DNA of 20,000 nt from IMG/VR virus record IMGVR_UViG_3300015371_000019. The stretch is one strand, 5' to 3'. The position numbers and the translations under genes were made by a program. Origin of the DNA: an uncultured virus (IMG/VR IMGVR_UViG_3300015371_000019). Its lineage: Duplodnaviria > Heunggongvirae > Uroviricota > Caudoviricetes. Below the pieces are notes generated by a model. The model did not search any database. It was not told the DNA's origin and was given only the letters and a program-made list of their open reading frames with translations. This document shows, piece after piece, positions 1,884 through 18,723 of the stretch; position 1 is the stretch's first letter, and each line of letters begins with the position of its first letter.

Positions 1884-3281
1884 CTACGGCAATTTGGAAA
1901 CGAAGCAAGGGCATCCGACGGCCAGGTTCCCCGCCGTCCAGACTACTTGGAAGTCCGCCCACTTCCCGTCCCGGAGGAACACCCAGTTCAATCGGTAGAT
2001 GCCGTGCACCTTCTCCTCGGCCGTCTGGTTGATCCCGATCATACCCGTCACATGGGCATTCTTCCTCTTGTCCTCGGAGAAATCCTTCTTCGTGATCAAC
2101 TTCCGGTCGTAGGATGTAGCGGCGGCCTGGGTAGCAGTCACAAGCAGGAGGTGATACTTCTGCGAGATGCTCCGGAGCAAAGCCCACGTCATATTGACTT
2201 GGTGACGGAAGTCCATCTTCACCGTGTGCGGTTCCGGGGCCAACAGGTCGGCATAGTCGATCACCACCACGTCCGGTACATCCTCCGGGTCCAAGTGTCG
2301 TAGTTCATTCTCGATCTCCCCGGCCGTGATAGAATGGGCGGATCGACATTGTAATGACAGGAGCCCTCCTCTTTTCCCGGCGATCTTCTCCCAATCTAGG
2401 ATCCGTCCCTTCAAGGTGACCTCCCCACTATCATAAACCTCCGACTCGACCTTCGGCTTCCGGTCCGCCCCCTCCTTGATGATTTGAAGGTCCCTAGGAA
2501 TCTTTATGGACTTGGCATCCAACGGACGTCGGGAGGATCTCACCATCAATCGTTGGATCACCTCGTCCTCGCTCATATCCCCGACCACATAGTAACGGAC
2601 CCGCCGGCGTTGGCGTAAGGCCTGCCAAACGGTTTCCTGGAGCCAGTAGCTCTTGCCCCGCTTCTCCGGGCCCACAAACGAGATGAACCGATCCCGCGAA
2701 AAGTGGGGCGAGAGGAACTTGCCCAAATCCTTAGGCCATATCACCACTTGGTTCTTCTCCCGGTTCAGCAAGGACCGGGCTATGGACTCCGCATCCACTT
2801 GGATCTCGCCACTACTACCCAACTGGATCCTCTTGTAGGACAGGAGAACCTCCCTCGCCTGGTCGATGTCCTTTTGTCGGAGGGCTTCGTCCATCTCCCC
2901 TTGGATCCGGTTCAACTGGGCCCCGTCGAAATAACGGGCGGCCAAATCCACAATGAAGTCCTCGTTCAGATCCTCCGACCGGCTGGCCTCCTTACCCAAT
3001 CCCTCCAACATAGATTCCACCAACTCCACCGCCCCGTTGTCCTTACACTGTAAGGCCCAATCCTGAAAGATGGGGAGAAGAGCCTTGCCCGGAGCCTTCC
3101 CATACTTCCGCCAGTAATCCAAGCACCATCCCGCTATGAGATCCGCCCACTTGCCTCCAAACAAGTTCTCGTGGCCCTTGGTAATGGAGGCGATCCGACC
3201 CAACACCCCGCTATGAATCATCATAGCTATTAACACTGGCCGACTTTCCTTACCCGAGTAGTCCCTGACTATTATTGGCAT
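1884..3281 (-). CDS. Replicative SF4 DnaB-like DNA helicase
   Basis: Walker A-like GPEKRGKS, Walker B VVVIDYADLL, LVTATQ and FSED motifs. 465 aa, directly downstream of the replication initiator. Confidence 0.85.
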   Translation of the reverse strand: MPIIVRDYSGKESRPVLIAMMIHSGVLGRIASITKGHENLFGGKWADLIAGWCLDYWRKYGKAPGKALLPIFQDWALQCKDNGAVELVESMLEGLGKEASRSEDLNEDFIVDLAARYFDGAQLNRIQGEMDEALRQKDIDQAREVLLSYKRIQLGSSGEIQVDAESIARSLLNREKNQVVIWPKDLGKFLSPHFSRDRFISFVGPEKRGKSYWLQETVWQALRQRRRVRYYVVGDMSEDEVIQRLMVRSSRRPLDAKSIKIPRDLQIIKEGADRKPKVESEVYDSGEVTLKGRILDWEKIAGKRGGLLSLQCRSAHSITAGEIENELRHLDPEDVPDVVVIDYADLLAPEPHTVKMDFRHQVNMTWALLRSISQKYHLLLVTATQAAATSYDRKLITKKDFSEDKRKNAHVTGMIGINQTAEEKVHGIYRLNWVFLRDGKWADFQVVWTAGNLAVGCPCFVSKLP

Positions 3282-3282
3282 A

Positions 3283-4176
3283 CTATCCTTTCCTATGTCT
3301 TATCACTTCGACGATTGAGCTACCGACTGTTTCTGGATCAATAATCTCCTCCGGGTCCTCGTCCCGGCTGTGCCCGTTCTTCTTGGCCCCGGCCCGACGC
3401 ATAGCCTTCCTGATCTCAAAGAACGAGTCACAAAAGTGATTAACACCGTTCCACTTGGGAGTCCAGTCGTCATCCACATGTTCAAGATACCAGTTGGCGA
3501 CGGTGCGGAACTCTTCCAAGCTGACGCCGGACTCGAGGAGGCGTTCAACCCTATTCCTCCACTTGGGGGCGAGGACCTGGAAGTTGTCTTGGGAGGAATA
3601 GCGGGTACTACCGGTCCGTCTCCACAGCTTGAAGAAGCCTTGGAGGATTGTTGATATCTCTCCATTAACAAGGATGCCCAACCCGGTGTCCTTCGCCGCC
3701 CCGGCAGGGGCGTGCGGGGGAAACTTTAGTTTCCCCTCCGGGGTATTCTCTGGGGTACTCTCTGTATTAGTTCTGCCGATTCGGCATGGCTTGTCAGACA
3801 CCTCCGGTCCAACTAGCCTTTCCCCTTCGGCATGGCTAGGCTTTCCCAATCGGCATCGCCTATCAAATTCCGACCAAACAACACGGAAGTACAACTTGGC
3901 CGGTACTCCGCACAGGAGCTCCTTCATCAGCTGGAGTCTCCTCAATTGTAACCTCGCAGTACGTTGGTTCTTGTAGGACAATCCTGTCTCCCTTTCCCAA
4001 TCCTCCGCCGTCTTATACACCCAACCTTCCTTGTTGCTGGTCCGACTGCTCCAATACACAAGTTGGGAGAGCATTAGGGCGGCGTGGACACTTCCGGTCC
4101 AATCTACGAAAACCCGATGGAAAGCCACCGGCCGAGCAAAGATCCGCGAGTACTTCTCTTGAATGTCCATAGGCAT
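3283..4176 (-). CDS. Phage replication initiator / replisome organizer (N-terminal HTH)
   Basis: RPVAFHR...AALMLSQLVYW...GWVYKT..DWERETGLS...Q..AR..L...GVPAKLYFRV is typical of phage replication proteins. Start uncertain (GTG 4239, ATG 4176 or ATG 4170). Confidence 0.75.
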   Translation of the reverse strand: MPMDIQEKYSRIFARPVAFHRVFVDWTGSVHAALMLSQLVYWSSRTSNKEGWVYKTAEDWERETGLSYKNQRTARLQLRRLQLMKELLCGVPAKLYFRVVWSEFDRRCRLGKPSHAEGERLVGPEVSDKPCRIGRTNTESTPENTPEGKLKFPPHAPAGAAKDTGLGILVNGEISTILQGFFKLWRRTGSTRYSSQDNFQVLAPKWRNRVERLLESGVSLEEFRTVANWYLEHVDDDWTPKWNGVNHFCDSFFEIRKAMRRAGAKKNGHSRDEDPEEIIDPETVGSSIVEVIRHRKG

Positions 4177-4244
4177 TAAGACTACGTAGGTCGGAGGACC
4201 CGACGCAACGGATCCTCCGGCGGTGAACGGTCCCGCCACCTATA

Positions 4245-6722: not shown

Positions 6723-7682
6723 CTACGCGTCGTCCTCTTCCCCGTTGCCGTCCCCACCGAGAACACCTTCCCGGTTGACTTCCACCAGGGTAATGCCCCG
6801 CTTGACCATAGCCTCCAGCTCGGCCATCTCCTCGTCGCCCTTGACCACGTATTGGATCTCGGTGGGACGGAACACCTGGAAGATCCCCGGCCCGTAGGCG
6901 ACACCCGATCCTCCGCACACCTTGCAGGCCCCGGTGAAGTTCTCCGGGAGGCGACACTTGGCCGGGCATTCCTTCTGGATCGCCTTGGCGTGGGCCACGA
7001 ACACCTGAGTCTTGCCGAGCTCAAACCCGTGAGGGAGGCTGTGGATCCTCCGGGAGACACCCTGCTGCCGGACCTCTTTCAGGAAGTCCGCCGGGGTCTC
7101 GTAATACATCTCTCCAACCCACAGGAGGCCGGCCTGCTCCGGCAACTTCTTGAGCGAGCACCGTCCGCACTTCGACGGGGTGGAGCACTCCCGGTCCTTA
7201 AACATGAGGGCCGGGTTGATCCACGTCCACCCGCGGGCCGGCTTGACGCCTTCCCCGCAGCATGGACAAACCGATAGCGGGAGCGGGAGGAGTCCACAGC
7301 TCGTGAACACCGCCTTGGATATGAGATAGAGGCCACCGGGTTTCCTCCAGCCGCACCCGCGCTTCTGGTCGGTGACCGTTTTGATTTCGATTTCTGTTGT
7401 GTCTTTCATTTGGTTTGATTGTTTATCTCCGAGTGCGAGGATCGCCTTGTACAAAGCACCCTCGCGATCCCCGCCGTTGACGGCGGAGGACCGGGACGGC
7501 GACGGCCCGTAGCGTAGGGCCCCGGCCTTCCCGATGAAGAGGCTGGTATATCCTCCACCGACGACTGAACCGTCCGACGCCCCGGCGACATCCTTCTTGA
7601 AGTGTCGGTACTTCCCGCGGACTCCCGCATCCCGATAACCCATGGCCAATAGGCCCCGCACCAATCGATCCTGCAATGTCAT
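6723..7682 (-). CDS. Cys-rich hypothetical protein (319 aa), possibly two in-frame genes with an internal start at 7409
   Basis: ATG 7682 is coupled to the upstream stop. The C-terminal part has RGCGWRKPGGLYL, CPCCG, CxxxxxCxxC and CKVCGG. An A-rich stretch precedes internal ATG 7409. Confidence 0.65.
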   Translation of the reverse strand: MTLQDRLVRGLLAMGYRDAGVRGKYRHFKKDVAGASDGSVVGGGYTSLFIGKAGALRYGPSPSRSSAVNGGDREGALYKAILALGDKQSNQMKDTTEIEIKTVTDQKRGCGWRKPGGLYLISKAVFTSCGLLPLPLSVCPCCGEGVKPARGWTWINPALMFKDRECSTPSKCGRCSLKKLPEQAGLLWVGEMYYETPADFLKEVRQQGVSRRIHSLPHGFELGKTQVFVAHAKAIQKECPAKCRLPENFTGACKVCGGSGVAYGPGIFQVFRPTEIQYVVKGDEEMAELEAMVKRGITLVEVNREGVLGGDGNGEEDDA

Positions 7683-7888
7683 ACTTTTCCTTTCTGCTTG
7701 AGGTCCGGGCAAAACCCTTTCGGGGTGGACCGGACGTGTTTGACCGCATCCCGTATGTCCGACCACGCCGCCCCGCCTTGGAGCAACGTGGTCACAAAGT
7801 GTCGGAGGCATTGGCCGTGGGACGTGTTGGCGTCCGCCCGGTTGAGGGTTCCCGCCTCCTGCTGGCAATCTGCGCAAGCCCGGTTCAT
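7679..7888 (-). CDS. Small putative zinc-binding protein (69 aa)
   Basis: MNRACADC...SHGQCLRH (CxxC...HxxCxxH). ATGA coupling at both ends. Confidence 0.6.
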   Translation of the reverse strand: MNRACADCQQEAGTLNRADANTSHGQCLRHFVTTLLQGGAAWSDIRDAVKHVRSTPKGFCPDLKQKGKV

Positions 7889-8109
7889 CGGGATCCTCCG
7901 ATTGCCTTGACCAATGCCTCGAGCTTGGCCCGGTCCAGGTGGGTGTTGTTGGCCGCCCGTCGTCCCATTATCTTCTCGAGGGACGGAAGATCCCAACGGT
8001 CGGAAAGTTTCAGGAACCCGGCGAGGGCATCCTTCAGGAGGGTGACTTGCTCCGGGGTCAGCGTGACCGGCGGGGCGTTGTGCGCGTTGATAATGATGTC
8101 GATTTTCAT
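7885..8109 (-). CDS. Hypothetical protein (74 aa)
   Basis: Fits the tightly packed minus-strand operon. Confidence 0.65.
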   Translation of the reverse strand: MKIDIIINAHNAPPVTLTPEQVTLLKDALAGFLKLSDRWDLPSLEKIMGRRAANNTHLDRAKLEALVKAIGGSR

Positions 8110-8114
8110 GGTTG

Positions 8115-8390
8115 TTAGTCGTTGTAAATTACCACCTTAGTTCCCTTGGCCGCCGGGCATCGGACCACGCCCCGGCGGGTAGGCTTGAGGACCCAATACT
8201 CCACGTCTCCCTCGCCGTCCCGCTCCACCCGCTCCACCTCATACTCGACCTCAGCCCCGGTCCGGTGGGACTTCAGCGTCATGTAAGCCGTGGCCCAATG
8301 CCCTCCGGTGGATCCTTCGAGGGTAGAGATCTCCTGCGAGAACGTCCGGGTTTCCTTGTCGTAATTGAATAGGTTGGTGGAGGCGATCAT
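8115..8390 (-). CDS. Hypothetical protein (91 aa)
   Basis: GGAGGT RBS and ATGA overlap with the upstream stop. Confidence 0.7.
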   Translation of the reverse strand: MIASTNLFNYDKETRTFSQEISTLEGSTGGHWATAYMTLKSHRTGAEVEYEVERVERDGEGDVEYWVLKPTRRGVVRCPAAKGTKVVIYND

Positions 8391-8602
8391 TGGACACCTC
8401 CGTGCTTCTTCTCGAGCCGTCGGAATGCCGCTCCAATACGGGAGGTCAACTCCGAATACTCAATGGCGGCCGTCGCCTTCCGAAGGCCGTGGGCCAGCTT
8501 GCGGGCTTCCTCCTTGGTTAGCTCGAATCGCATGGCGGGTGAGCCGATCATTAGTTGGACGAGGCGACGACGCCCGCCCACTCTTTCAACCTTGACGATC
8601 AC
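8387..8602 (-). CDS. Hypothetical protein (71 aa)
   Basis: GTG 8602 overlaps the upstream stop (GTGA), with GGAGGT upstream. Confidence 0.55.
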   Translation of the reverse strand: MIVKVERVGGRRRLVQLMIGSPAMRFELTKEEARKLAHGLRKATAAIEYSELTSRIGAAFRRLEKKHGGVQ

Positions 8603-9006
8603 AGCCCACCTCCCAAGTGCTTGATGCACTCCGGCCCGATACCCGCCTCGACGGACTCCGGCGTCGTGAGCTTGCGCCCGCACCGGCAGCACTTACCTTC
8701 GTGGAAGATCTCCACCTTGCCCTCGAGCCCGTTCCCGATGTGGGCCCACACCCAATTGAAGGCGACGGCGGACGGGGCCTCCGGGGTGATCCGGGACTTG
8801 CGCCCGTGGACGAACTTCTCCCCGTTGAAGATGGTTCCCAGGAACGCGTAGTTCGATTCGTTGTCCGGCCCGTTGAGGACCGAGACGAAATGCGGGGCGT
8901 CGTCCTTGGGTTGGCGAACCCGGAAGGTGAACCGGGTTCCCGTCTTGCAGGACCGGACGGTGAACGTGGCATTGCCCATGAGGGCGAATTGTTTGAGCGG
9001 GATCAT
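8599..9006 (-). CDS. DUF6011-like zinc-finger protein (135 aa)
   Basis: C-terminal CCRCGRKLTTPESVEAGIGPEC signature. ATG 9006 is coupled to the upstream stop. Confidence 0.8.
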   Translation of the reverse strand: MIPLKQFALMGNATFTVRSCKTGTRFTFRVRQPKDDAPHFVSVLNGPDNESNYAFLGTIFNGEKFVHGRKSRITPEAPSAVAFNWVWAHIGNGLEGKVEIFHEGKCCRCGRKLTTPESVEAGIGPECIKHLGGGL

Positions 9007-9377
9007 TGGACGGCAGGGGTGGAGGGTTTCACGGCATATTCGGACGCTTCTTCCTTCTTCAAATCGGCGATCGCATAGTTGGCGGACCACAACCCGCGGG
9101 ATCCTTTGCCCTTGCGGTCGTAGTCCATCCGGGTGTTGATCGAAACGGTCATCCGGCCGAAGCGCCGGTCGGTGTTCCGGAAGCTCACGAAGACGTGGGC
9201 GTATCGGATAACCGCACCCCGGTGCATCTCGACCGTCTTGGACAGGCAAACCAGGACCGAGAACGGACGGGCGCCCGGAACACCAAGGCGTTGGGCGGTG
9301 ACTTCGCGGGTCCAGCCCGCAGCTACGGCGCGGCGGATCAACTCCACCGCTTGTTTTTTTGATGCAATGTTGCTCAT
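9003..9377 (-). CDS. Hypothetical cassette protein (124 aa)
   Basis: ATG fixed by repeat copy R1. Confidence 0.7.
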   Translation of the reverse strand: MSNIASKKQAVELIRRAVAAGWTREVTAQRLGVPGARPFSVLVCLSKTVEMHRGAVIRYAHVFVSFRNTDRRFGRMTVSINTRMDYDRKGKGSRGLWSANYAIADLKKEEASEYAVKPSTPAVQ

Positions 9378-9407
9378 ATGGGTATGTATTAGCGGGTTAT
9401 AGGCCCA

Positions 9408-9629
9408 TCACTTCTGGGAAGCGGTGGCTCCGACGTGTTTGTTGTAAAGTTCTTGGGCCTTGGACCGGTCGCGGGTTTCCACGATCACGACCGTGTGGCC
9501 GACGGGGTAAACACCCACAACCGGGACCAGCAACGGACGGTTGAACCGTTTGAGGGCCATGTTAAGGGTGTGGATGTCCGGGGACGTTTCCCAGGTCAGC
9601 ACTTCGTATTTGATTTCGGTTTTGTTCAT
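9408..9629 (-). CDS. Hypothetical cassette protein (73 aa)
   Basis: Starts at R2 and ends ...SQK* inside R1. Confidence 0.75.
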   Translation of the reverse strand: MNKTEIKYEVLTWETSPDIHTLNMALKRFNRPLLVPVVGVYPVGHTVVIVETRDRSKAQELYNKHVGATASQK

Positions 9630-9649
9630 ATGGTTCCTATAAGCGGATG

Positions 9650-9856
9650 TTAGGCCCGTCTCAGGGCGGCGATCGCACCCGCGATCGCGGTGAGTCGGTC
9701 GAGACGGTCCTCCGGGGTGATGACTTGGACCATCTCCCGTTTGCCCGTCGCCGTCCGGCGGATCTCGGTGTAACCCGATCGGGTGGCTTCGCTAACGACC
9801 TCCACCCGGCCTTCCCGGATCGCCCGGGCCAAACTTGCTTGTGTCATTGTCTTCAT
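9650..9856 (-). CDS. Hypothetical cassette protein (68 aa)
   Basis: Starts at R3; stop lies inside R2. Confidence 0.75.
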   Translation of the reverse strand: MKTMTQASLARAIREGRVEVVSEATRSGYTEIRRTATGKREMVQVITPEDRLDRLTAIAGAIAALRRA

Positions 9857-9896
9857 ACTTGTGATATAAGCGGGTTAAAGGCCCACTCAAAATTGA

Positions 9897-10088
9897 TCAG
9901 CACCCTTTCCAGGAGGCCCGTCCCGCATACGGGTAATCCGTTCCTTTACCCAGTTTTGTGGCGGCCTCGAGGGCTTCACTCCGGTCGCTGGCTTCCACAT
10001 CCACCGACATCCACATCCCCCGTCCGGCCGGATCTGCGTGCATACGGACCGTCCATGTCCTTCTCATTGTTGTGATCGTTTTCTTCAT
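9897..10088 (-). CDS. Hypothetical cassette protein (63 aa)
   Basis: MKKTITTMRRTWTVRM..., with ATG 10088 fixed by R4. Confidence 0.7.
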   Translation of the reverse strand: MKKTITTMRRTWTVRMHADPAGRGMWMSVDVEASDRSEALEAATKLGKGTDYPYAGRASWKGC

Positions 10089-10440
10089 ACTCGTGATATA
10101 AGCGGGTCGCAGGCCCATTACTTCTGGGAAGTCCGGTGACCATCTCGTTCCCGATCTTGCGGGCGGCGGCGAGGGCCCCGTCCCGGGCGAAGTCCTCCGG
10201 GCCCATCGGGAGGCCGAGGACTTCCCGGAGCCACGGGAACGTCTTGATATTGTTAGGGGTAAACTGGAGGGTGTCCCGGCGGCGGCGGATGTAATCCTTG
10301 AGCAAGGCCACCTGGCGCTTAGGACCGGGCCGGCCCGCACCGTAATCCGCCAGGAGGAAGTTCACCGGCTCGTTCCCGACCAGGAGGGTCAAGGAGTGCC
10401 CCGTCATTAACAGCGTTGCATTTTGTTTCATATTTGACAT
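9976..10440 (-). CDS. Hypothetical cassette protein that reads out of frame through R4 (probably truncated or rearranged)
   Basis: ATG 10440 is fixed by R5; an in-frame alternative ATG is at 10500. The ORF misses the TAA in R4 and overlaps the next gene. Confidence 0.55.
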   Translation of the reverse strand: MSNMKQNATLLMTGHSLTLLVGNEPVNFLLADYGAGRPGPKRQVALLKDYIRRRRDTLQFTPNNIKTFPWLREVLGLPMGPEDFARDGALAAARKIGNEMVTGLPRSNGPATRLYHEYEENDHNNEKDMDGPYARRSGRTGDVDVGGCGSQRPE

Positions 10441-10497
10441 ACGGGTTCTATAAGCGGGTCGTTGGCCCATCGTTCTTGCGAATCGTTCGTTTACCAT

Positions 10498-10584
10498 CAT
10501 GCCGTAATATAACCCGGTCCTGGATCCCGTCAACGTCCCAATTCTATATTTTTAGAATTATCTTCTGGACCATCCCGGTGGACC
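10498..10584 (-). promoter_or_regulatory. Sigma70-like leaderless promoter module P1 with upstream palindrome and TGGACC repeat pair
   Basis: TTGACG (10528-10533), 16 bp, TATATT (10506-10511), 5 nt, ATG. Palindrome AATTCTA-N6-TAGAATT at 10540-10559. TGGACC-N7-TGGACC at 10566-10584. Confidence 0.65.
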
Positions 10585-10645
10585 GCCGGGCCGGATTCTT
10601 GGCCATGCCATCGTAGTGCCATTTCCAAGCCGCCGGTGGACCATC

Positions 10646-12961
10646 TTACTGGACCACCGGGTTCCCGGCCGGGGCCTTCTCCAGCCCGGCCACATCCACC
10701 GGGGCGGCGGGAGCCAATCCTTTCCGGCCGGCATTGAGCTGGATCCGGATCGTATTGTCCGCCACCGTTGCCCCGATCCGGTTGAGGACGGCCCGGGTCC
10801 GCTTGAAGTCCCACCCGGCTACTCCACAGGCCCGGATGATTGCCACGGCGGAGTGTCCCCCGAAGGCGGCCGGCGTCGAGCGGGTCCGCTTCAACGGACC
10901 GGGTGTGCCCTTGGCTTCCTTGCCCGACTTGGACGGGGTGAGGCCCAAGCGGGTCCGGAGATCCACCGGGAGCTGCCGGTAATACTTGCGGAGCATCTTC
11001 AGCGCCACGGCCACTTGGCGGGGCGTGAGGGTGGCTTGAGCGGCCAAGGACTTTCCGTAGGCGGTGTCCATAGCGTTGAACCCGGCTTCATCCTTCCGAC
11101 GGGCCCCGTCGCACATCCCGGCCAGGATCTTGAGGGCTTGGTGGGTGTCGGTAATGACCTCAGCGGGTAGGGCCGGATCCTTCCGCGGCTTCATACCGGG
11201 TTCCTTCGGTCCGCCTTCTTCCTCCGGGTGGACGACCGGGATGATGGGCGATCCGGCCGCGGGTTGCGGTTGCGGCTCCGGGATGTCCTTGATGATTTCC
11301 TCCGGCCGGTTCTCGTTGAGCTTCAGGTCCCCGTCGTTCAGCAAGTCGATGCGGCCGATCTTCTCCCGGACTTGATCGCAGATCCGCTCCTCGATGGTCT
11401 TCGCGGCGAAGAAAATCCGTTGGAGGGATTTGACCCCGCCGGCCCGGTGGACCCGGCCGAGGGCTTGCTTGAGGTCCTGGCCACTCCAGGTCGGACAAAT
11501 GATTGCGAGGCGCATCCGTTTCCCGGGTGAGCCGTGGAGGGATACTCCGACGCCGCCGGCCTTGATGTTGCAGATGATGATCTTCTCCCGGTCCTCTTGG
11601 AACCCTTGGATGTTGTTCTCGCGGACCGTATCGGATTGCCCGCCCCGGATCACACACTCGGTTTTGAGCTTGGCCACGAGCGCGTCGGCCGACTCATCAA
11701 AGTTCACGAAGATCGCCACGGACATCCCTTCCTCGACGGCATCTTGCGCCATCGCGGCGATCGCCGGGACCTTGAGGATCTCGGCCTTCTGGCGGGCCCG
11801 GAGCATTGCGACCAGGATGCAGGCCCCGGTGTCCGCGTTCATCCGTTCCTGGAGGCGGGCGATCTCGTCCTTCATCTCGTCGTACACCGCATTGATCTTG
11901 GACTCGTTCCCGTTCGTGTCGTAACACTCCGCCGTGATTTGAGTCTCCGGGAAAGCGTTGCCGAGGTCGGCGATCCGAACGCGGGTCCCGTGGAGCGGAA
12001 AGATCTCCCGGTGGATGTGGTTGAGTTCCTCCACCCCGCCTTCAAAGCTCATGCCCCAACGACCCTTCTTGCAAGCGTGCGATTGGGCCCACGCCCAGAA
12101 TCGCTTCTCCGGGAAGCAACCCGTCAGGAACCCGCTGAACTTCATCTGGAGCGGGTTGTCCGCAGCCGTGGCCGAAAGCCCGATCACCATGTACTTCTGG
12201 CGGATGGCGGAAAGGCCGAGGGCACAATTCCAAGTCCGGTGATCCTTCAGCCGGTGGCACTCGTCGAAGATGATGATCGTGGTCGGATCCAAGTGCCATT
12301 GGAAGTCCTCGTTCTTGCCCTCGCCGACGATCCGGACGGCGGCTTGCTCACCCCGGCGGAGGAGCTCGTAGTTGCAAACGAAAATGCTCATCCCGAAATG
12401 AGCGGCGGCCCGTTTCCAGCTCGGCCGGACGGCCTTCGGGCAAACGACGTACACCGGGCGATTAAGGATGAAGGCGGCGGCGAGACTCGCGTAAGTCTTC
12501 CCGGTTCCCGTGTCGGACGCGTCGAGGGCCCCGTTATAGGTCGAGAGGGCTTTGACGAGCCGGCGGACCGAAGGGATCTGGAACGGGAGGAGTTTCTTCT
12601 CGATGAGCTTGAACCGGGCGTACTGCTCGGCCGTGAGCTTGGCGTGCTTACCCTCGAGGGCTTCCTTGAGCTCGAGCCGTTCCTCTTCCCGGCGGAGCCG
12701 CTCGGCTTCGACCACGGCGGGATCCAGCGGGAGCCACCAAAGGATTTCATACACGGGCAACCCGGCGTCGTCGTGCTTGACGTATTTGACGGTGATCCCG
12801 GCGGACCGGAGGGCTTCCCGGTTTGCGTTCCAGGTGTCCCAAAAGGAGTGCCCCCGCTCGGCCGGGGCCTTGCGGAGCATTCGGTCGCCGTTCTTCGTGG
12901 CGACCCGGACGGGTGCCGTCCACGGGAGGATTGTTTCGAGGTTGATATTCATATTTGACAT
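10646..12961 (-). CDS. SNF2-like SF2 helicase with C-terminal accessory domains (771 aa)
   Basis: Motifs DTGTGKT, IFDECH, LSAT, KAGGVGVSL and QALGRVHRAGG, followed by a Pro-rich linker, a CDGA...GFN..D...GKSLA segment and a terminal ~55-aa domain. ATG fixed by R6. Confidence 0.85.
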   Translation of the reverse strand: MSNMNINLETILPWTAPVRVATKNGDRMLRKAPAERGHSFWDTWNANREALRSAGITVKYVKHDDAGLPVYEILWWLPLDPAVVEAERLRREEERLELKEALEGKHAKLTAEQYARFKLIEKKLLPFQIPSVRRLVKALSTYNGALDASDTGTGKTYASLAAAFILNRPVYVVCPKAVRPSWKRAAAHFGMSIFVCNYELLRRGEQAAVRIVGEGKNEDFQWHLDPTTIIIFDECHRLKDHRTWNCALGLSAIRQKYMVIGLSATAADNPLQMKFSGFLTGCFPEKRFWAWAQSHACKKGRWGMSFEGGVEELNHIHREIFPLHGTRVRIADLGNAFPETQITAECYDTNGNESKINAVYDEMKDEIARLQERMNADTGACILVAMLRARQKAEILKVPAIAAMAQDAVEEGMSVAIFVNFDESADALVAKLKTECVIRGGQSDTVRENNIQGFQEDREKIIICNIKAGGVGVSLHGSPGKRMRLAIICPTWSGQDLKQALGRVHRAGGVKSLQRIFFAAKTIEERICDQVREKIGRIDLLNDGDLKLNENRPEEIIKDIPEPQPQPAAGSPIIPVVHPEEEGGPKEPGMKPRKDPALPAEVITDTHQALKILAGMCDGARRKDEAGFNAMDTAYGKSLAAQATLTPRQVAVALKMLRKYYRQLPVDLRTRLGLTPSKSGKEAKGTPGPLKRTRSTPAAFGGHSAVAIIRACGVAGWDFKRTRAVLNRIGATVADNTIRIQLNAGRKGLAPAAPVDVAGLEKAPAGNPVVQ

Positions 12962-12990
12962 ATGGGTTGGTTAAGCGGGTTGCTGGCCCA

Positions 12991-13212
12991 TCAAAGGTGG
13001 GAAAGTCCTTGGGACTTGAAGAGGTCCATCGTCGCGTCCCGTTGGAGCCCGGTGAGCTGCCCCCAATCGGCGGAAGCCCAACGGTCCGCCAAGGCGGTCC
13101 AATGGGGATGTCTCATTGTTGCATCCGTCCGGATCAGGGCAAGGCGCTCGGCTTTGCTCATACGGTCCCACCTGTATCCGGCCGGCCCGACGTTTTTCGT
13201 GTTCTTACTCAT
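12991..13212 (-). CDS. Hypothetical cassette protein (73 aa)
   Basis: Starts at R7 and ends SHL* inside R6. Confidence 0.75.
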   Translation of the reverse strand: MSKNTKNVGPAGYRWDRMSKAERLALIRTDATMRHPHWTALADRWASADWGQLTGLQRDATMDLFKSQGLSHL

Positions 13213-13253
13213 GGGTATGTATTAGCGGGTCGTAGGCCCACCAGGTTTGAGAA

Positions 13254-13541
13254 TCACTCCGCGGCCCATCCGCCCACAAGCCAATACTCCTCGGTGGCCG
13301 TTTTAACGGTAACGGCGAGGACCGGGCCCCACTTCTCGGTGTTTTCCCAAATGTAATCCTCGGCGGCGTCCCGGTCCTTGAAAACCTGGGAGGACGTTTT
13401 GATCCCGCGGGTTGTGGAGATGGTCCCGTTGTATTGGTCCTGCCCGTATTCGCGGGTTGCCCCGTCCACGGCGGCCCGATACCACTTGGTGAGGTCGGTG
13501 CCCTTGGTTACTTTGAATCCTCCGATGTTCGTTGCGCCCAT
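13254..13541 (-). CDS. Hypothetical phage protein (95 aa)
   Basis: EYGQDQYNGTIST...KWGPVLAV...GGWAAE. Lies downstream of R8 behind an A-rich leader; its stop abuts R7. Confidence 0.75.
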   Translation of the reverse strand: MGATNIGGFKVTKGTDLTKWYRAAVDGATREYGQDQYNGTISTTRGIKTSSQVFKDRDAAEDYIWENTEKWGPVLAVTVKTATEEYWLVGGWAAE

Positions 13542-13589
13542 ATTCTCGTTTGTGTTAATTGTTTACCGTCGGGTATGTATAAGCGGGTG

Positions 13590-13850
13590 TCAGGCCCGTT
13601 TCCGTTTGAGAACTTGCTTGGCGTCGAGTTGGGCGGAGTAGGTGCGCCCGTGCGTTTCGTGGACCACCGAGGCCCGGCCCGCTTCGTAGGCGGCCTCGAG
13701 CGCGGCTTTGATCTGCCAAACTGCTTGATCGCTAAAGTCGAGCCCGTCGGAACGGCGGGTGTCGAGGGTTTCCAAATGGAGGGTTTCGCGGGCGATCCCG
13801 AGGAGGGTCGCGTCCCGGCCCGTTGTTTCGTTTTTGTTCATGTTCTTCAT
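13590..13850 (-). CDS. DUF6900-like protein (86 aa)
   Basis: IARETLHLETLDTRRSDGLDFSDQAVWQIKAALEAAYEAG is the recognised pattern. ATG 13850 fixed by R9. Confidence 0.75.
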   Translation of the reverse strand: MKNMNKNETTGRDATLLGIARETLHLETLDTRRSDGLDFSDQAVWQIKAALEAAYEAGRASVVHETHGRTYSAQLDAKQVLKRKRA

Positions 13851-13881
13851 ACGAGATGATATAAGCGGGTCGCAGGCCCAT

Positions 13882-14247
13882 TCATTTTGGGAAAGAGTCC
13901 ACTTCGACGGTCCACGGGTTCCCGCAGGAGGATCCGTTGTTGTAACGGACGCTGATCCCGCCGGCCTGGGCCCGGAAGGCATCGGCCTCTTCCTTTGTAG
14001 CGAACGTTCGTATGGTCCGGGCGGCGGGCGGAGTAAGCGGGTTGCCGGATCCGACTTGGACCGCCATCCCGCGGAAGATCCCACGGTCCTTCATAAAGGC
14101 CTTGGCTTCCTCCTCGGTGGCAAACCGGGTGGACTTCCTAAGGTTGAGGGTGGATTTGAACCCGGTCGGAGGAGCGTCCACGACCATCCGGCCCGAGGGT
14201 TGGAGCATTATTGCCCAGGTGATTGTTCGTTGTTTCATTTTTGTCAT
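13882..14247 (-). CDS. Hypothetical cassette protein with an internal duplicated FATxEEAxAF motif (121 aa)
   Basis: Starts at R10 and ends FPK* in R9. Contains RFATEEEAKAF and TFATKEEADAF. Confidence 0.75.
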   Translation of the reverse strand: MTKMKQRTITWAIMLQPSGRMVVDAPPTGFKSTLNLRKSTRFATEEEAKAFMKDRGIFRGMAVQVGSGNPLTPPAARTIRTFATKEEADAFRAQAGGISVRYNNGSSCGNPWTVEVDSFPK

Positions 14248-14277
14248 ACGGGTTGATATAAGCGGGTCGCAGGCCCA

Positions 14278-14679
14278 TTACTTCTGGGAAACGAGGTAGG
14301 TGGTCCAATTGTCCCCGCCGTTGATATCCCGCCAAACTTCCCACCGGGTCGCCTCCGGCCAACCCGGTTTCTTGAGCAACTTCTTCAGCCACCCGACCGC
14401 CTTCCCGGCGGACGTGAAGGACCCGTTCGTGTAGGGCCCGTGTCCCCACGGATCCATCCTCCACCCGGCGGCCTTGCGCTTGTTCCATTCCTCGACGGTG
14501 AGGGCGGAGTCCACGACTTCGATCGTATGGACGGCGGCGAGCCCCTGGACCGGATGCTCTTTGACCTTGCCCACGGCCCGGAGCAGATCCAGGGTGGAGG
14601 CGTTGAAAAGCTTCGAGGACGCGATCACCCCGGCGGCGGCGATCCCCGCCTCGATTGTGTCTTTGATCGGGTTGCTCAT
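14278..14679 (-). CDS. Hypothetical protein (133 aa)
   Basis: ATG 14679 lies 1 nt after the upstream stop. Ends SQK* in R10. Confidence 0.7.
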   Translation of the reverse strand: MSNPIKDTIEAGIAAAGVIASSKLFNASTLDLLRAVGKVKEHPVQGLAAVHTIEVVDSALTVEEWNKRKAAGWRMDPWGHGPYTNGSFTSAGKAVGWLKKLLKKPGWPEATRWEVWRDINGGDNWTTYLVSQK

Positions 14680-14680
14680 G

Positions 14681-15049
14681 TTAATCCGTTCCCTCGAAGT
14701 GATGGGTGTGCTTGTTCCCGTCCCGGACGGTGACCAGGATCCCGTGGGAGGTTTTGCTCGCAATGTCCTTGTCCCCAATGCCCCAACCGAGGTTGTAAAT
14801 CTCGATTCGGTGCTTGGCGGCATAAGCAACGTGGGCGTCCGTCATCCGCATTTCCTCGAGCTGGTTCACGTCCTCGTCCGGGGAGAGGATGTCCTCCGAC
14901 GGGAGGGCTGTGGACTCCGCCCGGATCTCGCGTTTGCCGTCGTTCCAAATCTTCCGGACCCGCTTGTCGTGGGCGATTGCTTGGGCCCGGTCCGCGAACG
15001 GGCCGACGAACATGCCCGCAACGTTGGAGTGGATGTAATAGTGTTTCAT
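14681..15049 (-). CDS. Hypothetical protein (122 aa)
   Basis: Separated by 1-nt gaps from both neighbours. Confidence 0.7.
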   Translation of the reverse strand: MKHYYIHSNVAGMFVGPFADRAQAIAHDKRVRKIWNDGKREIRAESTALPSEDILSPDEDVNQLEEMRMTDAHVAYAAKHRIEIYNLGWGIGDKDIASKTSHGILVTVRDGNKHTHHFEGTD

Positions 15050-15050
15050 A

Positions 15051-15212
15051 TTAGTTGACGCGTTTGGTTACCCGGAGGCCGTCCGCCGAAAGGTAAGTGT
15101 GGGTGATTATGACGGATCCACGTTTGGATACGGTGCGGGAGACGGTGACGTCCACCCACCCCCACTGCTCGCAGACCCGGAAGGTTGTTTCGTTTTTGTT
15201 CATGTTCTTCAT
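15051..15212 (-). CDS. Small hypothetical cassette protein (53 aa)
   Basis: Not in the track. MKNMNKNETTFRVCEQWGWVDVTVSRTVSKRGSVIITHTYLSADGLRVTKRVN*. ATG fixed by R11; stop lies 1 nt before the next ATG. Confidence 0.7.
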   Translation of the reverse strand: MKNMNKNETTFRVCEQWGWVDVTVSRTVSKRGSVIITHTYLSADGLRVTKRVN

Positions 15213-15242
15213 ACGAGATGATATAAGCGGGTTGCTGACCCA

Positions 15243-15698
15243 TTATTTGTGGGAAACGGCTTCGGCCTTCGTCCGATACACGGCGACCATCTTCCGGCCG
15301 GATCCTTTGTTCCACCGGGCCCACTCTTTAAGGGCAATCGCCCGGGCAACCTCTTCGCTCCGGGTCCAGGTCCAAATCTCGAAGGCCTCGACGGCCCGTA
15401 AGTCGTTGACCGTGTAGAACATAAATTGCTTGAGGATGCCCTTGTCCGGCACCGGGCGTTCGGCCGGGACGCAGGACCGGATCTCCGCCAACTGCCCGTC
15501 CGTCAACGGGGCGGGTTCGCCCCGCTCACCGAGCCGGCCGGCCGATTGCTGGGCCCGGATGGTCGCGTCCGCCACGGCGATCCCGGCTTTGGCCAGGAAG
15601 GCCCTAATGGTTTGAAATTCAATGTGCTCCCGACCGCACCGGCGGATCACCGCCGTGGGAGCGAACCCGAACACCGTTTGTTTCTCGTTTGTTACCAT
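15243..15698 (-). CDS. Hypothetical cassette protein (151 aa); N-terminal domain homologous to the C-terminus of the 771-aa helicase
   Basis: Starts at R12 and ends SHK* in R11. Contains FG...AVIRRCG...VADATIRAQ..AGR. Confidence 0.8.
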   Translation of the reverse strand: MVTNEKQTVFGFAPTAVIRRCGREHIEFQTIRAFLAKAGIAVADATIRAQQSAGRLGERGEPAPLTDGQLAEIRSCVPAERPVPDKGILKQFMFYTVNDLRAVEAFEIWTWTRSEEVARAIALKEWARWNKGSGRKMVAVYRTKAEAVSHK

Positions 15699-15731
15699 AT
15701 ACGAGTGATATAAGCGGGTTCGTGGCCCGTC

Positions 15732-15833
15732 CTAGCCGAGAAAAGTAAGGGCGACCCATAGGAGGGCATAGGCCCCGATCCCGATGGAGGCGAGCTTTAC
15801 TTTAATGTCTAACATGTTGATATGGTGGATCAT
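15732..15833 (-). CDS. Putative single-pass membrane peptide (33 aa)
   Basis: ATG 15833 overlaps the upstream stop (ATGA). Hydrophobic stretch LASIGIGAYALLWVALTFLG. Stop lies inside R12. Confidence 0.5.
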   Translation of the reverse strand: MIHHINMLDIKVKLASIGIGAYALLWVALTFLG

Positions 15834-16090
15834 AGACCCTTGAATTGGTGGTCGAGTTCGATCTGCCGCTTTTGGAAGTCCTCGGCCCGACCAATGTTCT
15901 CTTTCCAGCTGAACGAGTAACCGTTCCAGGTGGTCCATTGGACCACGCTCGTAAACCGGTCCTCTCCCCGGCCGAACCGGGCCAAGATGATTTTACCCGG
16001 CTCGATGACCTCCGTCACCGTCCCGGTGAGCCGGTTGCCCGACTCAAACGTGACCTTTACTTTATCACCGACTTTAACATTTTCGTTCAT
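15830..16090 (-). CDS. Small beta-rich (KOW/SH3-like) protein (86 aa)
   Basis: VKVGDKVKV...TGTVTEV. ATG 16090 fixed by R13. Confidence 0.7.
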   Translation of the reverse strand: MNENVKVGDKVKVTFESGNRLTGTVTEVIEPGKIILARFGRGEDRFTSVVQWTTWNGYSFSWKENIGRAEDFQKRQIELDHQFKGL

Positions 16091-16124
16091 ACGGGTTGAT
16101 ATAAGCGGGTTAGAGGCCCGTCGT

Positions 16125-16358
16125 TTACGAGAACCACGAGTTGAGGACACCCTCGACCGGGCCACCGGACTCGGGTTTGGTTTGGTCGGACATGCCGACC
16201 ATGAGCTCGAGCTCGGCCCGGGCCGTCCGGCTTAATTGGTTGTCGAGCAGGGCGAACCGGAGGGCTTTATGGAGGATGGCCATTTGGATACCGGACAGCT
16301 CAATGGTGAACGCCCGCGGGTGTAATTTGATTGTTTGTGTTTTCGAATTTTTACTCAT
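16125..16358 (-). CDS. Hypothetical protein (77 aa), first gene of the cassette block
   Basis: ATG lies 5 nt after the -10 box of promoter P2. Stop lies inside R13. Confidence 0.7.
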   Translation of the reverse strand: MSKNSKTQTIKLHPRAFTIELSGIQMAILHKALRFALLDNQLSRTARAELELMVGMSDQTKPESGGPVEGVLNSWFS

Positions 16359-16444
16359 GCGCTAATATGGCCCCGGCTTGATATCCCGTCAACACCGGGT
16401 TCTCTAAAATTTTAGAATAATCTGCTGGACCATCGGGATGGACC
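16356..16444 (-). promoter_or_regulatory. Sigma70-like leaderless promoter module P2 (paralog of P1)
   Basis: TTGACG (16387-16392), 17 bp, CATATT (16364-16369), 5 nt, ATG. Perfect palindrome TCTAAAATTTTAGA at 16403-16416. TGGACC-N7-TGGACC at 16426-16444. Confidence 0.7.
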
Positions 16445-16491
16445 TTCGGAGGGTCCCGACGGACCGGGAAGGCATGGAAAAGGTAGTGCCT

Positions 16492-17349
16492 TTACATAGC
16501 CACAAATCGGCGGAGCCGGGCGAGCTCCCGGTCGTCCATCGTCCCGGGATCGTCGGACCGGGAATTGAGGAGGACCGTCCGGCCGGGTAGGGCACCGAGC
16601 TCCCCGGCCAACCTCCGGGCAACGTGGCCGGCGTCCCGGTCCAGAAGGATGAACCGGCGGGGCACTTGGGCGATCAGCCGGACCTGGGCCGGGGTATAAG
16701 CAGAGCCGAACAGGGCGCCCGCTCCGGGCCCGATCCTCCACACATCCGCGGGACCCTCGACCACAACGATTGAATCCCGGACGAAGTCCAACCCGTAGAT
16801 CAAGTCCTTGATCGGGGTGGCTTCTTCCTCCGGTGCGGCGGAGATGTACCGTGGCTGGGCCTTCCCGACGGCCCGGGTTGTCCACGATACCCGTTGCCCG
16901 CGGAACAGGACCGGGATGTAAAGTCGCCACGGGAGGACCGGGAGCAGACCCAATCCCTCCAGGCCCCACATCCGCTCCAGCTCCAGCGCGTCGAACCCGC
17001 GGCCCTTGAGATATCGTCGGTGGACGGGAAGCAACGGGCCCCGGCCGGCGGGTTCCTTCAACCGGCCGGCCACCTTCTCCCGGACCTCACGGACCGGGCG
17101 GACCTCCCAGAAGGACCGGATCCTCTCCTCCGGCACCCTCCAGAGGGTAAGGACTTTCCGGGCAGGCATCCACCCACATCTCCAACAATGAAAGTAACGG
17201 CCGGCGAGGTTGAACCCTAGGTGGAACTTATTGGAACCCGGCCCGCAGGACGGGCAGTCGAGTTGGAGCCAGCCTTCGCGGGCATGCCGGTGGCCTCCCT
17301 CGACGAAAGGGACCTTCCATTCCCGGAACATTTCCTGGGCTGAATCCAT
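16492..17349 (-). CDS. DNA primase (zinc-binding domain plus TOPRIM)
   Basis: CPSC...FHCWRCG zinc ribbon. TOPRIM motifs VVVEGPADV, LLDRD and DDPG. Confidence 0.85.
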   Translation of the reverse strand: MDSAQEMFREWKVPFVEGGHRHAREGWLQLDCPSCGPGSNKFHLGFNLAGRYFHCWRCGWMPARKVLTLWRVPEERIRSFWEVRPVREVREKVAGRLKEPAGRGPLLPVHRRYLKGRGFDALELERMWGLEGLGLLPVLPWRLYIPVLFRGQRVSWTTRAVGKAQPRYISAAPEEEATPIKDLIYGLDFVRDSIVVVEGPADVWRIGPGAGALFGSAYTPAQVRLIAQVPRRFILLDRDAGHVARRLAGELGALPGRTVLLNSRSDDPGTMDDRELARLRRFVAM

Positions 17350-17370: not shown

Positions 17371-18723
17371 TCAACGATTCCTTCCAAGGCCGCGTAGTAG
17401 CTCGTCAAACACGTCCAAGTCTGTCGAACGCGCTTTCCCGTCCAAGACTGCGTCGAGTATCGAAGCCTTGCGCTTTAATATCTTCATGAGCTTCTCCTCC
17501 ACGGTGTCGATGGCGACCAAATAGTAAATGAGGACCGGGTGCTTCTGGGTGATGCGGTGCGTCCGGTCCTCTGCTTGGAGGAGGTCGCCCGGTGTCCAAG
17601 GGAGGTCGAAGAAGAAGGTCCGCCAGGCCGCCGTCAAAGTGATGCCCGTCCCGGCGGCCTGGAGGTTGCCGAGGAGGAGCCGGATCCGCTTGTTCGTTTG
17701 GAAAGCCCGGTGGACGGTTTCCCGGTGCCGCCCAGTCACCCGGCCGTCGAGGATAACCGCGCGGTGACCATACTCCTTGTAAAGGGTATCGACGACGAAG
17801 GTGTGCCGGGTAAAGCCCACGATCTTCTCCCGCGGGTTGGCCTCGAGGAGATCGTCAATCCACCCCTTCGCTTGGTCGAGCTTGAGCTTGGCGACGAGCC
17901 GGAGCAGATACCCGATGCGGGTGAGGGCCTGGCTGCGAGCTGCCCGTAAGGCCCGGGCTGGGCTGATGGACCGGAGCCAACCTAGGAAGTCCTGTTCTGC
18001 TTGGTCATACTCCTTCCGGTCCTCCAACCGGAATGGAACGACCTGTCGGGTTTTGGCCGGGAGCTCTGTCTGTACATCCTTTTTGAGGCGGCGGATCATA
18101 CAGGACTCCGCCAACAACCGGTTCAGCTGTTTCAGATCCTGAGCCCCGTCATACTTCCAGCCCCAAGGCGTCCACCGGGGAGCACAATACTTCCAAGCGT
18201 AATGACGGACGGAGGGAAAGAGGTCCGGGCGGATCATATGTAAGGCCGGCCACAATTCGATCGGCCGGTTCACCAACGGGGTGCCTGACAACCCGATGAC
18301 GGACGGGACACCGCGGGTTAAAGCTAGCGCGGCCTTCGTCCGTTTGGCCCGGAGGGACTTGCAGTAATGGACTTCGTCTATGATCACACACTCCGGCCTC
18401 AACCGGAGGAGGATCGGGAGCCAGCTGTGGAGGATGTCGTAGTTGATGATGTAGATGCCCCGCTTCGAGAGGGAATCACGGCCTCCGTTCCGCCCCTCGA
18501 GCACTTCAGTCCGTAGGTCGAAGTGGTCGGAGGCCTCCAGCTGCCACACATACTTCATGGAAGCCGGGGACACAATGATCACCGGGCGTCGGGTTGGAAT
18601 CTTCGTCACCCAGTAGAGGGCTTGGATTGTCTTGCCCAAGCCCATCTCATCGGCGAGTAAGGCCCGTCCACGAAACTGGTAGATCTGTTTGACGCCTTCG
18701 AGTTGAAAGGGTCGTAGCTTCAC
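17371..18723 (-). CDS. SNF2-family (HARP/SMARCAL1-like) helicase (450 aa)
   Basis: Motifs LRPFQ, LLADEMGLGKT, IIDEVH, LSGTPLVNRPIELW, MIRRLK, AAGTGITL and QAEDRTHRI. Confidence 0.92.
   Translation of the reverse strand: MKLRPFQLEGVKQIYQFRGRALLADEMGLGKTIQALYWVTKIPTRRPVIIVSPASMKYVWQLEASDHFDLRTEVLEGRNGGRDSLSKRGIYIINYDILHSWLPILLRLRPECVIIDEVHYCKSLRAKRTKAALALTRGVPSVIGLSGTPLVNRPIELWPALHMIRPDLFPSVRHYAWKYCAPRWTPWGWKYDGAQDLKQLNRLLAESCMIRRLKKDVQTELPAKTRQVVPFRLEDRKEYDQAEQDFLGWLRSISPARALRAARSQALTRIGYLLRLVAKLKLDQAKGWIDDLLEANPREKIVGFTRHTFVVDTLYKEYGHRAVILDGRVTGRHRETVHRAFQTNKRIRLLLGNLQAAGTGITLTAAWRTFFFDLPWTPGDLLQAEDRTHRITQKHPVLIYYLVAIDTVEEKLMKILKRKASILDAVLDGKARSTDLDVFDELLRGLGRNR

Follow-up and report, generated by a model that had tools for sequence, protein, structure and literature searches.

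How could a gene come to lose its stop codon to a repeated element at its end? The question is raised by an open-reading frame (ORF) on the minus strand of a 20,000-nt stretch of DNA (the window) from an uncultured virus of the Caudoviricetes (IMG/VR IMGVR_UViG_3300015371_000019), which begins at position 10440, crosses a short repeated element and continues to 9976 over the start of the next gene. The element contains a 37-bp sequence that recurs without change about 4 kb away behind an unrelated gene, and a first-pass annotation, made from the sequence alone, had read the arrangement as a recombination scar. The analysis described here places the 37-mer in a family of regulatory-looking cassettes that exchange parts, and leads us, with modest confidence, to a reading in which part of one cassette was overwritten from a sister copy and took the stop of ORF 10440 with it.

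A 37-bp identity within a family of cassettes

Direct reading confirmed that 10094-10130 and 14254-14290 are the same, both being TGATATAAGCGGGTCGCAGGCCCATTACTTCTGGGAA on the plus strand, and that the identity is exactly 37 bp, with flanking bases that differ on both sides (10093 g versus 14253 t; 10131 g versus 14291 a). The partial third copy that had been reported at 9401-9420 likewise matches 10111-10130 with one mismatch (19/20). On the minus strand the shared sequence reads TCC CAG AAG TAA/TGA, and two genes were correctly described as using it to encode S-Q-K-stop, as 14679->14278 ends ...YLVSQK-stop and 9629->9408 ends ...ATASQK-stop. The proteins of these two genes gave no blastp match to each other at E<=1, and a homologue search with the product of 14679->14278 returned only itself among 84 candidates.

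The 37-mer is part of a 13-copy family of cassettes of ~45 bp, all on the minus strand (Table 1), with the consensus TTCYCA-N7-YGGGCC-N4-ACCCGCTTATA-N7-10-ATG in the direction of the genes. The motif was matched 13 times compared with 1.81 +/- 1.37 expected matches, and 0 of 200 shuffles reached 13. The distance to the ATG is 7-10 nt in 12 of the 13 copies, the other having a 36-nt leader. An ATG within RATGGGCC was considered as an alternative start and rejected, being in frame with the annotated ATG only in N8 copies. The abrupt end of similarity at TTCCCA, which had been taken for a crossover point, has a plainer explanation: the outer block TTCYCR is conserved in 11 of the 13 copies, and similarity stops there because it is the edge of the cassette, beyond which the upstream genes are unrelated.

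The 13 copies are confined to 6.7 kb (9387-16100), and outside this segment no cassette copy was found in the 23,877-bp and 23,224-bp public records of the same phage. Most of the genes behind the cassettes are small ORFans. Among 14 small proteins of the cassette region that were scanned against Pfam and PHROG, a scan that left out gene 13590-13850, 13 had no Pfam family at E<=0.01 and 13 had no PHROG family at E<=0.001, the fourteenth (13882-14247) giving only matches below the curated cut-off or of marginal E. Gene starts behind the cassettes are generally A-rich (K/N/T codons), and the ORF at 10438-10440 and a 771-aa helicase gene at 12959-12961 both begin ATGTCAAATATGAA (MSNM...).

Within this family, cassettes 10097 and 14257, which carry the 37-mer, are sisters that agree even where the family varies, at N7 (GAAGTAA) and N4 (TGCG). 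Conservation across the whole family covers about 26 of the 37 positions, which leaves ~11 positions (N7 + N4) of informative identity. When columns were shuffled among the 13 members, the best pair reached at most 35/37 and 0 of 5000 shuffles gave 37/37. The copies closest to the pair are 13860 (34/37) and 15222 (32/37), which make up a subfamily, with all other pairs at 18-31. If the 37-mer were simply an optimal promoter, the two copies could be identical by convergent selection with no copying involved, and the conservation of so many positions across the family would fit such a view. However, free variation is seen at N7 and N4 in the other 11 copies, the constraint on N7 comes from the final codons of the gene upstream and not from a common optimum, and the shuffles fall short of the observed match, which makes convergence highly improbable. 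Agreement at N7 and N4 beyond column frequencies points instead to common descent or copying. This upholds the earlier preference for movement over convergence; the word "recent" that accompanied it rests on only the ~11 freely variable positions.

Gene ends inside the cassettes and an ORF without a stop

In 9 of the 13 copies the upstream gene terminates within N7 or N4 of the cassette, and in 2 others its stop falls just before the cassette. Cassette 10449 has no abutting upstream gene, and cassette 10097 is the only copy of the 13 without any stop for its upstream ORF. N7 holds the last codons and the stop of the upstream gene and is hence frame-specific, the gene ends that it encodes being, for example, SQK-stop twice, SHK-stop and FPK-stop. 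Three-frame translation of the version present in 10097 and 14257 gives a stop in only one of the three frames; one open frame runs in frame into the next gene, and ORF 10440 uses the other. As had been noted from the sequence, this ORF enters the cassette out of frame, reading CTT CCC AGA AGT AAT, misses the TAA (10118-10120), which is out of frame for it, and continues to 9976, with a tail that overlaps gene 10088->9897 in another frame. It is thus the frame in which ORF 10440 enters the cassette that leaves it without a stop. Public gene callers record it as a protein of 143 or 151 aa with the same stop.

The coding signal of the ORF ends where the cassette begins. Codon log-odds in the ORF frame are 0.55 for residues 1-77, 0.94 for residues 78-103 and -0.01 for the 51-codon tail, so that the strongest codon bias is found in residues 78-103, which have no homologue. 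The G+C content at third codon positions (GC3) is 0.9-1.0 down to ~10130 and then collapses, and the frame leading to SQK-stop showed no coding signal over the preceding 120 nt. An AlphaFold model built from a 3-sequence alignment, with a mean predicted local distance difference test (pLDDT) score of 62, gave 73-89 for the greater part of residues 1-80 and <50 over residues 98-152, which have no secondary structure and are predicted to be disordered; residues 81-99 form a weaker helix.

A word-indexed homologue search with the read-through ORF returned only the ORF itself among 94 candidates, and the ESM Atlas gave no usable match. Two relatives, P0002 (77 aa) and P0003 (71 aa), came out of an exhaustive HMMER search of 1.84 billion representatives. 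They show 55-58% identity and align with residues 8-77 and 4-73 of the query; P0003 is probably complete as encoded on a 9,892-bp contig. Homology had been predicted to end at about 10131. It ends near 10210 (residue ~77), ~80 nt before the cassette, and the coding signal continues to ~10132. Conservation of the C-terminus to 9976 would have spoken against a scar, and neither P0002 nor P0003 conserves the tail. Given that it has no coding signature, the 51-residue tail is probably a young, unselected by-product, and the native form of the protein catalogued with 143, 151 or 154 aa probably measures ~103 aa, to which the tail has been added by accident.

The tail could instead be functional, either because the 154-aa product is intended, with an overprinted C-terminus, or because a -1 ribosome shift carries translation to SQK-stop. 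All 154 codons are open, gene callers accept the ORF (P0001, P0004), and a formal X XXY YYZ heptamer, G GGC CCG, is present at 10204. A shift at 10204, however, would exchange the strongly coding residues 78-103 for a low-GC3 Pro/Arg/Gly frame and there is no slippery site near the cassette, while the extension itself combines the lack of codon bias and of any homologue with predicted disorder. We regard a functional extension or recoding as very unlikely.

Exchange of parts between cassettes

The cassettes bear marks of exchange. The copies, all from one genome, were split into a left part (TTCYCA + N7), a middle part (N4) and a right part (the spacer and the first 30 nt of the gene), and the three parts gave incompatible nearest neighbours among the cassettes. 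The left part is common to 10097 and 14257 (13/13) and to 9387 (12/13), N4 is TGCG in 10097, 14257 and 13860 and AGCA in 15222 and 12970, and the right parts of 13860 and 15222 agree at 37/38 nt, including the first ten codons (MKNMNKNETT) of otherwise unrelated proteins. N4 type and right type occur in all four combinations, in 13860 (TGCG, a), 15222 (AGCA, a), 14257 (TGCG, b) and 12970 (AGCA, c). Unless identical multi-base mutations were repeated, this pattern indicates exchange inside the invariant ACCCGCTTATA block, and the cassettes in this genome thus demonstrably exchange parts. The first-pass annotation had proposed that N7 was copied with the element and that the crossover took place at or near its 5' edge. 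The first part agrees with the sharing of N7 and N4 beyond chance; as for the second, the demonstrable breakpoints are inside the ACCCGCTTATA core, and a crossover at the edge is plausible but unproven. No joints between cassettes were seen in 4 sequencing runs.

An 81-nt repeat, 13814-13894/15176-15256 (89% identity), comprises the right cassette half and the first 10 codons of genes 13850->13590 and 15212->15051, and makes a further junction of this type, on the cassette's downstream side.

How the stop was lost

In the reading that we find somewhat the more credible, a sister copy replaced the left half of cassette 10097 together with its N7. This half, TTCCCA-GAAGTAA-TGGGCC-TGCG, would be of the lineage that is in frame for 14679->14278 and 9629->9408, and would have been gained by short-patch copying between cassettes, through gene conversion or template switching, within a tract bounded by TTCCCA and the core. 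The acquired half stops one frame of three, and with ORF 10440 in another, termination would have been lost, leaving the ORF to run 51 extra codons over the putative promoter and the start of the next gene. Ordinary recombination within the core leaves a gene with its own N7 and so cannot remove a stop.

Identity by descent explains the 37 bp equally well, and a terminal indel could then have had the same effect. Gene 10440 would once have ended ...SQK-stop, on a cassette shared by descent with 14257 and 9387, and a later 1-nt deletion before TTCCCA would have shifted its frame. One base inserted before TTCCCA would indeed give ...T-G-x-S-Q-K-stop, and the TTCCCAGAAGTRA left half is already present in three cassettes, in two of them in frame. 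The coding frame is, however, unambiguous to within ~6-9 nt of the cassette, with a log-likelihood ratio (LLR) of 0.94, which leaves a very small target for the deletion. GC3 in the last ten codons is 8/10 in the ORF frame versus 3/10 in the SQK frame, and no variant with an extra base was seen among the contigs, whose depth was low. On this evidence a terminal indel appears unlikely. Overwriting is favoured over it because exchange between cassettes is established, because the left-half type is in frame elsewhere twice, and because a deletion needs a 6-9 nt target.

Several points weigh against overwriting. The same sequence results if a ...SQK-stop gene loses 1 nt from its last 2-3 codons (ACC GGA C/TT), and to the left of N7 only the 6-nt TTCCCA bounds the tract, which is very short for ordinary homologous recombination. 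P0002 and P0003 end ~26 residues before the cassette, leaving residues 78-103 without comparison, and among the matches listed in a metagenome scan there were only contigs of the same phage and no relative in the pre-event state. The assemblies that agree on the junction (see below) may all come from one phage population. In addition, 13 of 14 other loci with genes related to the sigma factor of this phage lack such a cassette, most of them being short or having a sigma identity <=32%.

A wider proposal, which we consider doubtful, is that the cassettes are portable expression modules, each made up of a stop, a leaderless promoter for a phage sigma factor, an ATG and A-rich codons, which move and convert one another among the ORFans of an undescribed phage lineage, ORF 10440 being a fresh conversion event. 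If this were true, the 51-residue overprinted extension would be a natural start for a new coding sequence by overprinting.

Agreement among assemblies

A 37-bp exact repeat can confuse de Bruijn assemblers, and some contigs do end in it (X1 record 1 ends at 10123, X5 record 26 starts at 10101 and X1 record 8 ends at 14283), so that the repeat might have induced a chimeric join, or a 1-bp error might have arisen between the copies. The window source and two further assemblies nevertheless give the same junction with 0 gaps. IMGVR_UViG_3300015372_000028 corresponds to window 14139->3843 with 1 mismatch and 0 gaps in 10,297 nt, and AR_comb_assmDRAFT_10213700 to window 7365-12967 at 100%. Two single-run contigs, X2 record 9 (9400-10377) and X3 record 17 (9980-10388), bridge cassette 10097 with 0 differences and 0 gaps, the single-run evidence consisting of contigs at a depth of 3-5x. 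The 14257 copy is bridged by a separate contig, IMGVR_UViG_3300000440_000090 (13278-14677, 100%), which is also AR_comb_assmDRAFT_10319966 and covers the window from 13278 onward at 100%; among the matches listed, no single-run contig bridges 14254-14290. The 4 runs gave no rows for an indel, a variant or a joint. At the contig level, then, two further assemblies and two single-run contigs agree that there is neither a 1-bp indel nor a misassembly, a point that the first-pass annotation had asked to be verified with raw reads, and an artefact is exceedingly improbable. Assemblies of the same phage break at 13278-13317, a 40-bp overlap of two contigs of one assembly, and at 14139, neither of which is at the 37-bp repeat.

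Probable function of the cassettes

The layout of the cassettes suggests that each is probably a phage-specific promoter, which a sigma-family protein encoded by the phage itself would probably recognise. TATA stands 7-10 nt ahead of a conserved T-ATG, an arrangement most simply read as transcription starting at the ATG or beside it, and the resulting mRNAs would be leaderless or near-leaderless and lack a Shine-Dalgarno (SD) sequence. No SD-like sequence was found in the cassette spacers; GAGGGAA is present upstream of the internal, translationally coupled gene 14679. A scan with the sigma70 consensus found no site in the cassettes and 3 minus-strand sites elsewhere (10533-10506, 16392-16364 and 16018-15990). 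The sigma gene of the window matched PF04542 Sigma70_r2 at E 4e-8 and TIGR02937 at 21.2 bits, below the cut-off of 42.9.

Among the sigma-related loci, a distant relative, L134 (IMGVR_UViG_3300044776_000102), with a sigma protein 42% identical, carries three TGGGCCTAGCGCCCGCTTAT[AC]-N7/8-ATG elements, two of which (9043-9064 and 9323-9344) are identical over 22 nt, including N4. In L134, a sigma70-like repeat, TTGCGC-N17-TATAGT (8978-9022 and 15416-15460; 89% over 45 nt), stands directly upstream of a cassette. L131, L132 and L133 each gave one weak position weight matrix hit (15.4 bits, the same sequence), which was taken as chance, and the remaining 10 loci gave none. The closest sigma relatives, L127 (79%) and L128 (57%), had no cassettes in the DNA examined, where the downstream region is non-syntenic or too short.

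A 4-bp stem, CYCR/YGGG, around N7 is weakly supported, with 88.5% of cells paired, 12 of 500 shuffles scoring as high, and one A-U to G-C change in 2 related copies. A GGG-N7-CCC hairpin was set aside as uninformative, being invariant. Terminator-like sites were not above shuffles (11 vs 10.8), and Rfam gave 0 matches.

Outside the cassettes, a 47-nt repeat, 10543-10589/16403-16449 (81% identity), is an AT-rich near-palindrome (TCTAAAATTTTAGA at 16403) with TGGACC-N6-TGGACC repeats (10566, 10637, 16426). Each copy closely follows the end of a large gene (helicase stop 10646, primase stop 16492) and is closely followed by a minus-strand sigma70-like site, at 10533-10506 (TTGACG-16-TATATT, 10/12) and 16392-16364 (TTGACG-17-CATATT). 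These regions may be early promoter/operator regions for the host polymerase.

Comparison with known systems

The closest known analogue is the PeSL cassette of T4-type phages, which extends from an upstream stop to a downstream start among ORFans and takes part in modular shuffling (PMC2839356, PMC4122927). In both systems short repeated regulatory cassettes in a region of small ORFans would act as exchange points between unrelated genes and bring a promoter along, and the chimeric cassettes expected there are seen here. PeSLs carry -35/-10 boxes of sigma70 consensus, a stable terminator stem-loop and an SD sequence (PMC2839356), whereas the cassettes described here have no sigma70 match, no SD and a stem of at most 4 bp, and are distinguished by the GC-rich core ACCCGCTTATA and a nearby phage sigma gene, in a phage not shown to be T4-like.

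The SAS elements of Cluster K mycobacteriophages are 13 bp long (GGGATAGGAGCCC), contain an SD core (AGGAG) and lie 3-7 bp from the start, with a translational role proposed (PMC3203893). SAS/ESAS share with the present cassettes a single orientation, a place in the non-structural half directly before the ATG, and an upstream stop that is sometimes inside (PMC3203893). The outer symmetry is also alike, GGG-N7-CCC in SAS and GGGCC-N4-ACCC here. The cassettes differ in having no AGGAG/SD, in a conserved block that ends 7-10 nt from the ATG, and in being conserved over ~45 bp. The intergenic repeats of halovirus HF2, which were identified as promoters by reporter assay and are conserved among relatives, are likewise families of intergenic repeats in a virus genome; they belong to an archaeal virus, are AT-rich archaeal promoters and form 58-bp and 29-bp classes, and the accessible part of the report describes no overlap with upstream gene ends and no read-through for them (PMC8707807).

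The locus is a fairly ordinary kind of phage mosaicism that does not overturn current understanding. It would provide a clean example, outside the T4-type phages, of repeated promoter cassettes as exchange points in an ORFan region, and it would show what a phage may pay for letting promoters overlap gene ends: with the stop supplied in one frame only, copying a cassette can remove that of a neighbour. The combination of ACCCGCTTATA-N8/9-ATG and a sigma factor with region 2 only is a candidate for a new class of phage promoters with leaderless transcripts.

Gene content of the window and identity of the phage

The window, whose convincing genes all have minus-strand orientation, is the replication/early module of an uncultured soil phage (Table 1), in which QueD-like and QueE-like proteins are also encoded (Pfam/PHROG).

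Table 1 Cassettes, ORFs and replication genes of the window, with positions counted from its first letter
Feature	Coordinates	Strand	Remarks
Cassette 9387 (R1)	9375..9420	-	Left part TTCCCAGAAGTGA matches 10097/14257 at 12/13; TGA is the in-frame stop of 9629->9408
Cassette 9638	9627..9671	-	Without TTCYCA block; upstream stop TAA within N4
Cassette 9865	9854..9898	-	Without TTCYCA block; upstream stop 11 nt before TGGGCC
Cassette 10097 (R4)	10086..10130	-	TTCCCA-GAAGTAA-TGGGCC-TGCG-ACCCGCTTATA-TCACGAGT-ATG
Cassette 10449	10438..10482	-	In front of the read-through ORF; preceded by sigma70-like site 10533-10506
Cassette 12970	12959..13003	-	Before the 771-aa helicase; ATGTCAAATATGAA common with cassette 10449
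Cassette 13220	13210..13253	-	
Cassette 13578	13578..13612	-	N8 spacer; 36-nt leader to ATG at 13541
Cassette 13860	13848..13893	-	N4 TGCG as in 10097/14257; right half + first 10 codons as 15222 at 37/38
Cassette 14257 (R10)	14245..14290	-	TAA (14278-14280) is the in-frame stop of gene 14679->14278
Cassette 15222	15210..15255	-	N4 AGCA as 12970; right half as 13860; upstream gene ends SHK-stop
Cassette 15709	15696..15742	-	TTCTCG...CGGGCC
Cassette 16100	16088..16133	-	TTCTCG...CGGGCC; in front of gene 16090->15830
Read-through ORF, 154 aa (MSNMKQN...)	9976..10440	-	Crosses cassette 10097
Coding part, residues 1-103	10132..10440	-	Real coding signal; residues 4-77 homologous to P0002/P0003
51-codon tail	9976..10131	-	Cassette + next gene read out of frame
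63-aa gene served by cassette 10097	9897..10088	-	LLR 0.14, weak yet best of three frames
133-aa ORFan, ...VSQK-stop	14278..14679	-	Ends inside cassette 14257
73-aa ORFan, ...ASQK-stop	9408..9629	-	Ends inside cassette 9387
Sigma-70-family protein, 203 aa	18720-19331	-	Pfam/PHROG; only region 2 recognised; candidate cassette reader by inference only
SNF2-type helicase	17371-18723	-	Pfam/PHROG
Primase	16492-17349	-	Pfam/PHROG
Second helicase, 771 aa	10646-12961	-	Pfam/PHROG
Replication-initiator-like protein	3283-4239	-	Pfam/PHROG
DnaB-like helicase	1884-3281	-	Pfam/PHROG

Three public contigs carry the same sequence, and the same proteins are also recorded from a 72,880-bp contig. Blastn of window 9000-16500 against cultured phages gave no match, nor did tblastn against phages with P0003 and with the sigma protein. 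The SNF2 helicase is only 30-35% identical to Thermus/Rhodothermus phage helicases, which is uninformative on the host. Viral contigs searched with the read-through ORF, the ORF alignment and the helicase returned the same phage only, and 0 of 38 pattern matches in genome contigs were confirmed as related loci. Among the matches listed in a metagenome pattern scan (at least 118 stretches), only L076 and L103 were of this phage, the rest being single chance matches.

The C-terminus of the 771-aa helicase (residues 702-769) resembles residues 11-83 at the N-terminus of a 151-aa ORFan, 15243-15698, the two having in common a domain of ~70 residues with 40% identity (E 4e-8). Downstream of cassette 16100, gene 16090->15830 (86 aa) is followed by a switch of coding frame at an ATGA overlap and then by a short hydrophobic peptide of 33 aa (~15833->15732), and the 68-aa ORF 15938->15732 of the mechanical ORF list is probably over-extended.

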